Shown: positions 58,367 to 63,073 of the stretch, piece after piece
Numbering within the stretch: the first letter of the stretch is position 1
How the letters are laid out: each line of letters begins with the position of its first letter
Assembly: GCF_044647545.1 (NCBI RefSeq)
Contig: NZ_CP172818.1
DNA length: 64,000 nucleotides
Origin: Escherichia coli
GTDB taxonomy: Bacteria; Pseudomonadota; Gammaproteobacteria; Enterobacterales; Enterobacteriaceae
Reading direction: 5' to 3' (one strand)
Position numbers and translations under genes: made by a program
The notes under the pieces: model-generated
Databases searched by the model: none
What the model saw: only the letters and a program-made list of their open reading frames with translations
What the model was told of the DNA's origin: nothing

Positions 58367-59632
58367 GTGTCAAAGGCAACCGAACAAAACGACAAGCTCA
58401 AACGGGCGATAATTATTTCAGCAGTGCTGCATGTCATCTTATTTGCGGCGCTGATCTGGAGTTCGTTCGATGAGAATATAGAAGCTTCAGCCGGAGGCGG
58501 CGGTGGTTCGTCCATCGACGCTGTCATGGTTGATTCAGGTGCGGTAGTTGAGCAGTACAAACGCATGCAAAGCCAGGAATCAAGCGCGAAGCGTTCTGAT
58601 GAGCAGCGCAAGATGAAGGAACAGCAGGCTGCTGAAGAACTGCGTGAGAAACAAGCGGCTGAACAGGAACGCCTGAAGCAACTTGAGAAAGAGCGGTTAG
58701 CGGCTCAGGAACAGAAAAAGCAGGCTGAAGAAGCCGCAAAACAGGCCGAGTTAAAGCAGAAGCAAGCGGAAGAAGCGGCAGCGAAAGCGGCGGCAGATGC
58801 TAAAGCGAAGGCTGAAGCGGATGCAAAAGCTGCGGAAGAAGCAGCGAAGAAAGCGGCTGCAGACGCGAAGAAAAAAGCAGAAGCAGAAGCCGCCAAAGCC
58901 GCAGCCGAAGCGCAGAAAAAAGCCGAGGCAGCCGCGGCGGCACTGAAGAAGAAAGCGGAAGCGGCAGAAGCAGCTGCAGCTGAAGCAAGAAAGAAAGCGG
59001 CAACTGAAGCTGCTGAAAAAGCCAAAGCAGAAGCTGAGAAGAAAGCGGCTGCTGAAAAGGCTGCAGCTGATAAGAAAGCGGCAGCAGAGAAAGCGGCAGC
59101 CGACAAAAAAGCAGCAGAAAAAGCGGCTGCTGAAAAGGCAGCAGCTGATAAGAAAGCAGCGGCAGAAAAAGCCGCCGCAGACAAAAAAGCGGCAGCGGCA
59201 AAAGCAGCAGCTGAAAAAGCCGCTGCAGCAAAAGCTGCCGCAGAGGCAGATGATATTTTCGGTGAGCTAAGCTCTGGTAAGAATGCACCGAAAACGGGGG
59301 GAGGGGCGAAAGGGAACAATGCTTCGCCAGCCGGGAGTGGTAATACTAAAAACAATGGCGCATCAGGGGCCGATATCAATAACTATGCCGGGCAGATTAA
59401 ATCTGCTATCGAAAGTAAGTTCTATGACGCATCGTCCTATGCAGGCAAAACCTGTACGCTGCGCATAAAACTGGCACCCGATGGTATGTTACTGGATATC
59501 AAACCTGAAGGTGGCGATCCCGCACTTTGTCAGGCTGCGTTGGCAGCAGCTAAACTTGCGAAGATCCCGAAACCACCAAGCCAGGCAGTATATGAAGTGT
59601 TCAAAAACGCGCCATTGGACTTCAAACCGTAA
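58367..59632 (+). CDS. tolA: Tol-Pal system protein TolA
   Basis: 421-aa ORF with N-terminal anchor, long Ala/Lys/Glu-rich helical domain II and C-terminal domain III; GTG start. Confidence 0.95.
   Translation: MSKATEQNDKLKRAIIISAVLHVILFAALIWSSFDENIEASAGGGGGSSIDAVMVDSGAVVEQYKRMQSQESSAKRSDEQRKMKEQQAAEELREKQAAEQERLKQLEKERLAAQEQKKQAEEAAKQAELKQKQAEEAAAKAAADAKAKAEADAKAAEEAAKKAAADAKKKAEAEAAKAAAEAQKKAEAAAAALKKKAEAAEAAAAEARKKAATEAAEKAKAEAEKKAAAEKAAADKKAAAEKAAADKKAAEKAAAEKAAADKKAAAEKAAADKKAAAAKAAAEKAAAAKAAAEADDIFGELSSGKNAPKTGGGAKGNNASPAGSGNTKNNGASGADINNYAGQIKSAIESKFYDASSYAGKTCTLRIKLAPDGMLLDIKPEGGDPALCQAALAAAKLAKIPKPPSQAVYEVFKNAPLDFKP
59035..59250 (+). repeat. Tandem coding repeats in tolA domain II (KAAAEKAAADKKAA units)
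   Basis: Repeated gctgctgaaaaggcagcagctgataagaaagcggcagca-like units; encodes reiterated AEKAAADKKAAA. Confidence 0.8.
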
Positions 59633-61622: not shown

Positions 61623-62414
61623 ATGAGCAGTAACTTCAGACATCAACTATTGAGTCTGTCGTTACTGGTTGGTATAGCGGCCCCCTGGGCCGCTTTTGCT
61701 CAGGCACCAATCAGTAGTGTCGGCTCAGGCTCGGTCGAAGACCGCGTCACTCAACTTGAGCGTATTTCTAATGCTCACAGCCAGCTTTTAACCCAACTCC
61801 AGCAACAACTCTCTGATAATCAATCCGATATTGATTCCCTGCGTGGTCAGATTCAGGAAAATCAGTATCAACTGAATCAGGTCGTGGAGCGGCAAAAGCA
61901 GATCCTGTTGCAGATCGACAGCCTCAGCAGCGGTGGTGCAGCGGCGCAATCAACCAGCGGTGATCAAAGCGGTGCGGCGGCATCAACGACGCCGACAGCT
62001 GATGCTGGTACTGCGAATGCTGGCGCGCCGGTGAAAAGCGGTGATGCAAACACGGATTACAATGCAGCTATTGCGCTGGTGCAGGATAAATCCCGCCAGG
62101 ATGACGCAATGGTGGCATTTCAGAATTTCATCAAAAATTACCCTGATTCAACTTACCTGCCAAACGCCAATTATTGGCTGGGTCAGTTAAACTACAACAA
62201 GGGTAAAAAAGATGATGCGGCGTATTATTTTGCTTCGGTAGTGAAAAACTATCCGAAGTCACCGAAGGCTGCAGATGCGATGTTTAAAGTCGGCGTCATC
62301 ATGCAGGACAAAGGTGACACCGCAAAAGCGAAAGCCGTATACCAGCAGGTTATCAGTAAATACCCTGGTACTGATGGCGCTAAACAGGCGCAAAAACGTC
62401 TGAACGCGATGTAA
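61623..62414 (+). CDS. cpoB: Cell division coordinator CpoB (YbgF), TPR protein
   Basis: 263-aa ORF with signal peptide, coiled coil and TPR repeats; last gene of the tol-pal cluster. Confidence 0.9.
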   Translation: MSSNFRHQLLSLSLLVGIAAPWAAFAQAPISSVGSGSVEDRVTQLERISNAHSQLLTQLQQQLSDNQSDIDSLRGQIQENQYQLNQVVERQKQILLQIDSLSSGGAAAQSTSGDQSGAAASTTPTADAGTANAGAPVKSGDANTDYNAAIALVQDKSRQDDAMVAFQNFIKNYPDSTYLPNANYWLGQLNYNKGKKDDAAYYFASVVKNYPKSPKAADAMFKVGVIMQDKGDTAKAKAVYQQVISKYPGTDGAKQAQKRLNAM

Positions 62415-62578: not shown

Positions 62579-62654
62579 GGGTCGTTAGCTCAGTTGGTAG
62601 AGCAGTTGACTTTTAATCAATTGGTCGCAGGTTCGAATCCTGCACGACCCACCA
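62579..62654 (+). tRNA. lysT: tRNA-Lys (UUU)
   Basis: 76-nt gggtcgttagctcagttggtagagcagttgacttttaatcaattggtcgcaggttcgaatcctgcacgacccacca; anticodon loop cuUUUaa; encoded CCA. Confidence 0.95.
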
Positions 62655-62789
62655 ATCGCTAAGGTGGAAGCGGTAGTAAAACGTGAAGGATAACGTTGCG
62701 TCAGCAACGGCCCGAAGGGCGAGACGAAGTCGAGTCATCCTGCACGACCCACCACTAACATAGTTAGTTGTAGTATCCAGCGTAGTATC

Positions 62790-62865
62790 GGGTGATTAGC
62801 TCAGCTGGGAGAGCACCTCCCTTACAAGGAGGGGGTCGGCGGTTCGATCCCGTCATCACCCACCA
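62790..62865 (+). tRNA. valT: tRNA-Val (UAC)
   Basis: 76-nt gggtgattagctcagctgggagagcacctcccttacaaggagggggtcggcggttcgatcccgtcatcacccacca. Confidence 0.95.
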
Positions 62866-62867
62866 CC

Positions 62868-62943
62868 GGGTCGTTAGCTCAGTTGGTAGAGCAGTTGACT
62901 TTTAATCAATTGGTCGCAGGTTCGAATCCTGCACGACCCACCA
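62868..62943 (+). tRNA. lysW: tRNA-Lys (UUU)
   Basis: Identical 76-nt tRNA-Lys sequence. Confidence 0.95.
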
Positions 62944-62994
62944 CTAATTACGGTGGGTTCGGTGGAAGTAGTTTGTAGTATCCAGCGCAGTATC

Positions 62995-63070
62995 GGGTGA
63001 TTAGCTCAGCTGGGAGAGCACCTCCCTTACAAGGAGGGGGTCGGCGGTTCGATCCCGTCATCACCCACCA
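62995..63070 (+). tRNA. valZ: tRNA-Val (UAC)
   Basis: Identical 76-nt tRNA-Val sequence. Confidence 0.95.
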
Positions 63071-63073
63071 CTC

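Follow-up and report, generated by a model that had tools for sequence, protein, structure and literature searches.

The intragenic tandem-repeat tract of Escherichia coli tolA and its in-frame length variation among strains

Background

TolA of Escherichia coli contains a long, Ala/Lys-rich helical domain (domain II) that spans the periplasm and through which force from the TolQR motor reaches the outer membrane, and the DNA that encodes the C-terminal part of this domain is a tandem repeat. Such a tract raises the questions of whether the number of repeats is fixed or differs from strain to strain, by what kind of event it would change, and whether the apparent differences and the long open reading frames on the opposite strand are real or are by-products of the repetition. 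These questions are addressed here for a stretch of 64,000 nucleotides of an E. coli genome (NCBI RefSeq assembly GCF_044647545.1, contig NZ_CP172818.1), hereafter the window. An earlier note on this DNA, made from the sequence alone, had described the interval 59035-59250 as near-perfect coding repeats prone to slipped-strand expansion or contraction and to misassembly, and as the source of spurious antisense open reading frames.

The variability of the tolA tract has already been described and experimentally characterised: Zhou, Michiels and Aertsen in 2012 (PLoS One 7:e47766, PMC3477136) reported that the C-terminal part of domain II holds 13 imperfect repeats, each of 15 or 18 bp. The studies of Levengood, Beyer and Webster in 1991 and of Schendel et al. 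in 1997 (reviewed in PMC7391070) had found thirteen copies of the same motif in a domain that is extended and alpha-helical and spans the periplasm; they cover the protein repeat, whereas length variation from strain to strain was not their subject. Helical domain II and its part in force transduction are described in PMC10666116 and PMC7391070.

Results and discussion

Identity and genomic context of the gene

The gene that holds the repeats is tolA (Table 1), as the earlier note had named it, and this identity is borne out by Pfam, by NCBIfam equivalogs and by the tol-pal operon context. The ORF list and Pfam matches give the gene order ybgC, tolQ, tolR, tolA, tolB, pal, cpoB, with MotA_ExbB in tolQ, ExbD in tolR, and TolB_N plus PD40 in tolB. 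In TolA itself, the C-terminal domain family PF06519 (domain III) matches residues 325-419 (E 2e-38, 130.9 bits, cutoff 25), and the NCBIfam TolA equivalogs NF007065 and TIGR02794 score 554 bits (cutoff 213) and 308 bits (cutoff 59.45), respectively. TolA chains in the PDB match the full length of the protein (residues 1-421), and the domain III chains 1tol, 1s62, 3qdp and 2x9a align to residues 292-421. Its nucleotide sequence shows 100% identity with tolA of E. coli FDAARGOS_497 and 98.9% identity with that of K-12; the window is therefore E. coli chromosome. Residues 14-32, IIISAVLHVILFAALIWSS, were read by eye as a hydrophobic N-terminal helix with S18, H22 and L26; on this reading of the sequence the SHLS motif, which binds the TolQR motor, is present in the N-terminal transmembrane anchor, and its H22 is the residue that was mutated in PMC10666116.

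Directly downstream of cpoB (61623-62414), the window carries seven tRNA genes in a row on the plus strand at 62579-63381 (Lys, Val, Lys, Val, Lys, Lys, Lys; anticodons ttt/tac), which looks like the ordinary lysT-valT cluster of E. coli.

Table 1. Features of tolA and its repeats, in positions of the window; indels are given with their size in nt and the range over which they map.
Feature	Position	Strand	Description
tolA coding sequence and domains	58367..59632	+	GTG start, 421 aa; I, membrane anchor; II, long Ala/Lys/Glu-rich helix; III, C-terminal globular domain
Degenerate upstream domain II repeats	58780..59038	+	Periods of 24, 12 and 9 nt; TRF rows for 58754-58925
Canonical tandem-repeat tract	59039..59245	+	13 imperfect units of 15 or 18 nt (TR1-TR13), K(K)AAA(E/D/A), delineated unit by unit
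First arm of 38-nt pair	59042..59079	+	TR1-TR3; only near-perfect DNA repeat
Second arm of 38-nt pair	59120..59157	+	TR6-TR8; 78 nt from the first arm; with it, likely substrate of 5-unit deletions and duplications
Upstream indel, +24	58793-58831		
Upstream indel, -45	58869-58879		
Upstream indel, -42	58949-58959		
Upstream indel, -6	58970-58977		
Upstream indel, -48	58991-59002		
Upstream indel, -81	58991-59003		
In-tract indels, +33 and +81	from 59032 onwards		
In-tract indel, +78	59042-59140		Strain C9, clean duplication
In-tract indel, -33	59060-59068		
In-tract indel, -15	59073-59086		
In-tract indel, +12	59106-59125		
In-tract indel, +15	59192-59214		
Antisense ORF, 224 aa	58705..59379	-	TTG start; low-complexity, A/F/S/L-rich; judged spurious
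Antisense ORF, 162 aa	58800..59288	-	GTG start; Leu/Pro/Gln/Ser-rich; judged spurious

Anatomy of the repeat tract

Parsed in frame, the thirteen units TR1 to TR13 measure 18/15/18/15/15/15/15/18/15/18/15/15/15 nt, encode peptides such as KKAAAE, KAAAD and KKAAE, and together correspond to residues 225-293 of the 421-residue protein. TRF detects a period of 15 nt (12.3 copies, 68% match, 59042-59235) and another of 78 nt (2.0 copies, 88% match, 59037-59195), and the earlier note thus placed the tandem coding repeat accurately and rightly assigned it to the Ala/Lys-rich part of domain II. Composition falls far short of explaining the periodicity: the best in-frame lag identity is 0.750, compared with 0.582 +/- 0.023 in codon permutations, none of which (0/500) reached the observed value. 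The repetitive, indel-prone zone is wider than the interval that had been flagged and reaches upstream to about 58780 through degenerate repeats.

The description of the repeats as near-perfect, in contrast, was too strong. The 15-nt units match at 68%, all 13 units differ in sequence from one another, exact direct repeats in the tolA gene of the window reach 20 nt at most, and repetition at synonymous sites is at the level of chance. The last point comes from a control in which synonymous codons were shuffled with the protein held fixed (400 shuffles for each of three measures and 500 for a 38-nt pair). The observed best lag identity was reached by 253 of the 400 shuffles, the longest exact repeat by 62/400 and the fraction of identical codons by 207/400, so that these three measures gave no overall excess of a recent-duplication signal beyond the protein motif. 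Since shuffling leaves the sequence no less repetitive than before, the repetition in the DNA is in essence imposed by the amino-acid repeat. The sole exception is a pair of 38-nt segments with one mismatch, which contains an exact 20-mer and an exact 17-mer and was equalled by none of the 500 synonymous shuffles. With units this far from identical and synonymous sites scrambled, the tract does not belong with the high-rate perfect microsatellites or VNTRs of the classical kind, in which units are nearly identical in DNA. Inverted repeats were sought in the tract and none was found.

Length polymorphism across E. coli

A comparison of tolA against 5,426 complete genomes of E. coli located the gene in 5,425 of them. 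Lengths were taken from three evenly spaced samples down three differently ordered rankings, each of 59 full-length rows (n = 177). A tolA of 1266 nt is present in 118 of the 177 sampled genomes (67%), including all K-12 derivatives sampled. Seventeen other lengths, from 1185 to 1347 nt, bring the number of lengths to 18; they differ from 1266 nt by -81, -51, -48, -45, -42, -33, -15, -6, -1, +9, +12, +15, +24, +33, +45, +78 and +81 nt, and every difference is a multiple of 3 except that of a single 1265-nt record (NCTC_86). The comparison of lengths across strains that had been proposed as a check therefore gives a repeat number that varies, with 33% of the 177 genomes departing from 1266 nt, and not one that is invariant, which supports the main idea of the earlier note. 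The longest alleles, of 1344 and 1347 nt (about 18 units), account for 2 of the 177 genomes. A length of 1311 nt was found in 17 sampled genomes, which look lineage-linked, and one of 1185 nt in five genomes of the O157:H7 type; within clonal groups the alleles are stable.

These natural alleles agree closely with the published tract (Zhou, Vanoirbeek, Aertsen and Michiels 2012, Res Microbiol 163:316; PMC3477136): the locus is the same, it likewise has 13 units of 15 or 18 nt, and the 8-unit shortest and the 16-unit alleles are those found here. A survey of 234 isolates by the same authors, as summarised in PMC3477136, gave 8-16 repeats with 13 in 66% of isolates, against 67% in the present sample of complete genomes. 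Both data sets share a prominent 78-nt (5-unit) step, the invariance of the last units and variability in the degenerate units upstream. The rare 1344/1347-nt alleles extend beyond the published range of 8-16 units; nothing essential is different.

A few records depart from the usual arrangement. One of the 5,426 complete genomes had no tolA match at all, in CAVP773 the gene is divided by the start of the record, and CP061260.1, a 'plasmid' record, has a 1263-nt match that is 3 nt below the query length. The presence of tolA on plasmids was considered and rejected: the 'plasmid' records concerned are 0.28-4.9 Mb in size and non-mobilizable, and apparently are mislabelled chromosomal sequences.

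Location and recency of the indels

Nineteen alleles were aligned and 18 in-frame indel alleles were mapped at the nucleotide level. In all 18 the in-frame indels lie in domain II, about half of the events being inside the flagged tract and the remainder in the degenerate upstream repeats (Table 1). Among the 15 alleles that were aligned first, domains I and III do not differ in protein sequence. TR11-13 encode a constant protein sequence in the 19 alleles from which the tract was extracted, and this fits the published contractions, some of which run into the degenerate units upstream and none of which involves TR12-13 (PMC3477136). In strain MB50, the 24-nt-period array at 58780-58830 is duplicated.

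Several of the events appear on backgrounds that are otherwise unchanged. Five indel alleles (+24, -33, -42, -48 and +78) have 0 substitutions relative to the K-12 allele over the remainder of the gene, and the -45 allele has 0 substitutions relative to the allele of ATCC 25922. Alleles of equal length from different lineages, by comparison, are 14-19 substitutions apart, nearly all of them synonymous in the tolA frame (14/14 and 18/19). Clean indels with no substitutions, set against 14-19 substitutions between lineages, indicate that indels outpace point changes at tolA. Strains 147 and 116 fit poorly to the window allele under a single-gap model (45 and 27 mismatches, respectively), but both are clean indels with 0 mismatches when compared with the O157:H7 allele. 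Among the O157-type strains, three alleles (1185, 1215 and 1275 nt) are distinguished from one another only by perfect-repeat blocks of 30, 60 or 90 nt and have in common the substitution ADDKAAEE, which is absent from other lineages; these block alleles may be usable as a sub-lineage marker.

The ranges over which gaps can be placed fix the polarity of the event in several cases, and arithmetic on these ranges gives the putative junction homologies: deletions have 8-13 nt, most duplications have 6-14 nt and the +78 duplication has 20 nt.

Proposed origin of the length variation

Taken together, the interval is with high confidence the intragenic repeat tract of E. coli tolA, in which misalignment of or recombination between units gives an in-frame helix length that varies from strain to strain. 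The tract forms the C-terminal portion of domain II, the long alpha-helix that connects two parts of the protein: the anchor in the inner membrane, which is bound to the TolQR motor, and the C-terminal domain, whose site of action is the outer membrane. Short identities of 6-14 nt among neighbouring units may lead to misaligned replication or unequal recombination, and the identity between TR1-3 and TR6-8 (20 + 17 nt, 78 nt apart) may lead to deletions and duplications of five units. Whole in-frame blocks would then be gained or lost. The periplasm-spanning helix is accordingly longer in some strains than in others, whereas domains I and III do not change and neither do the last repeat units.

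The events probably fall under two mechanisms, judging from their sizes and junctions. Most natural small events are best read as slippage at homologies of 6-14 nt, and the 78-nt events as recombination. The natural +78 duplication of strain C9 is the reciprocal of the published 5-unit deletions and uses the 78-nt-spaced homology. In PMC3477136, spontaneous contraction occurred at a rate of 6.9e-5, fell in recA to 15% of the wild-type rate, rose 3.3-fold in uvrD and was not affected by mutS, and the contractions selected were mostly 5-TR deletions. The dependence on RecA and the increase in uvrD point to recombination rather than pure slippage for contraction, whereas the small steps with junction homologies of 6-14 nt fit replication slippage. 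The slipped-strand process that the earlier note proposed is accordingly still plausible for the small natural steps, with which the junctions are compatible, but by itself fits less well with the published contraction, most of which is RecA-dependent.

Neutral spacer or selected locus

The repetition might instead be no more than the low-complexity composition of a helical spacer, its indels tolerated as neutral drift at a locus that is not a selected 'contingency' locus. This reading concerns the selective meaning of the tract and not the identity of the sequence, and it is only partly exclusive of variation through unit misalignment and recombination. Synonymous positions without extra repeat signal, a single length that dominates (67%) and the stability of alleles within clones are all in its favour, as is the ability of the unrelated domain II of TonB to substitute for that of TolA with partial function (PMC10666116). 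The periodicity of the tract, however, is far above that of composition (0/500 codon permutations), and several independent indels sit on zero-substitution backgrounds, which implies that indels arise at a much higher rate than substitutions. Length also has consequences for the cell: domain II length affects bile-salt tolerance, acid and osmotic tolerance and filamentous-phage infection, and variants engineered to carry 2-39 units have deoxycholate tolerances that lie orders of magnitude apart, with further differences in salt tolerance at low pH and in fd phage plating (PMC3477136). On balance neutral drift of a spacer is an unlikely account, although one that deserves to be kept in mind.

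Assembly artefacts

Far less credible is the proposal that the length differences among strains are assembly or sequencing artefacts around a repeat number that is truly constant. Errors do occur in such assemblies, as the 1265-nt tolA of NCTC_86 (NZ_OZ489144.2), annotated 'frameshifted', illustrates, and long perfect repeats are present in a few alleles (98 nt in strain C9, 66 nt in strain 147 and 68 nt in CCUG 73778), which could be harder to assemble from very short reads. The NCTC_86 gene, however, is the same as the K-12 allele apart from one G missing from the G6 run at 59296-59301, outside and downstream of the repeats, and may be either a homopolymer sequencing error or a real pseudogene. 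The remaining length differences are all multiples of 3, and the same length recurs per lineage in independent assemblies (the five 1185-nt genes of O157:H7 type, the 17 of 1311 nt and the K-12 derivatives at 1266 nt). The 13-unit share also matches that obtained by PCR sizing in the 234-isolate survey, as quoted in PMC3477136. As for the window itself, its longest exact repeat of 20 nt is below the usual assembly k-mers and far below the length of reads. The suggestion that the tract is prone to misassembly is thus unlikely to apply to the window allele, given that repeat length, its unique units and the concordance of independent assemblies; individual assembly records may contain errors, the comparison having been made at the level of assemblies.

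Antisense open reading frames

Two long open reading frames lie antisense to the repeats (Table 1), as the earlier note had stated, and 'spurious' is the best reading of both. All three minus-strand frames are free of stops for 171-225 codons. Between 58700 and 59250 there are only three stop-making trinucleotides (TCA, TTA, CTA), all of them at the 5' edge, and the 183 codons of the region include 96 for Ala, 42 for Lys and 27 for Glu. This codon set (GCN, AAR, GAR, GAY) almost never makes stops on the opposite strand, and the antisense open reading frames are therefore by-products of it; in codon-permuted controls the longest antisense open frame averages 160 of 183 codons. A Pfam search with the 224-aa and 162-aa translations found no family. 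Within the 162-aa frame, only 0-1 of 8-13 allele substitutions are synonymous, which argues against coding.

That a long antisense frame, especially the 224-aa one, is a real overlapping gene is scarcely believable: its length, its TTG start and the synonymous nature of 11/12 to 13/14 allele substitutions within it would speak for a gene, but the silent changes are explained geometrically by third codon positions that fall on those of tolA, all three antisense frames are open across the tract, codon-permuted sequences have long open antisense frames too, and the translation is of low complexity without a Pfam family. Because of the shared third positions, changes that are synonymous in tolA are mostly silent in the 224-aa frame too, and conservation there is uninformative. 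This coincidence of wobble positions is a geometric trap for conservation-based gene calling, and long minus-strand open reading frames across tolA should not be called genes.

Comparison with other repetitive genes

In-frame coding VNTRs such as the TCT tract of ahpC and the CTGGCG tract of mutL, as cited in PMC3477136, likewise alter a protein without destroying the gene product. The units of tolA differ from these in being long (15 or 18 nt), imperfect and each unique, and changes in tolA, unlike those of the ahpC and mutL contingency tracts, are not sensitive to mismatch repair, are largely RecA-dependent, and tune length rather than switch a function on and off. Domain II of TonB, with its Glu-Pro and Lys-Pro repeats, is also a repetitive periplasm-spanning spacer in a homologous force transducer and is partly interchangeable with domain II of TolA (PMC10666116). 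The two domains nevertheless differ, that of TonB having a polyproline-II structure and another repeat, without sequence similarity. The repeat length of TolA in Salmonella Typhi and Typhimurium is said to have been the subject of work by Lahiri et al. in 2011.

Conclusions

To the tract characterised in 2012 the present analysis makes small additions: a census of complete genomes that extends to about 18 units, natural junctions at the nucleotide level, and three O157-type alleles that differ by single blocks. In-frame length alleles of tolA are to be expected by annotators and should not be flagged as errors, and tolA is a poor choice for typing schemes that assume a fixed length. A bolder proposal, which we consider speculative and rather improbable, is that tolA repeat length is lineage-diagnostic and niche-selected over a range of 8 to about 18 units, with two mutational regimes (slippage for small steps and recombination for steps of 78 nt) through which pathotypes tune their envelope. 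If this were true, the tuning in pathotypes such as O157:H7 would take place on epidemiological time scales and would concern the stiffness or reach of the envelope, or else the resistance to filamentous phage and colicins.
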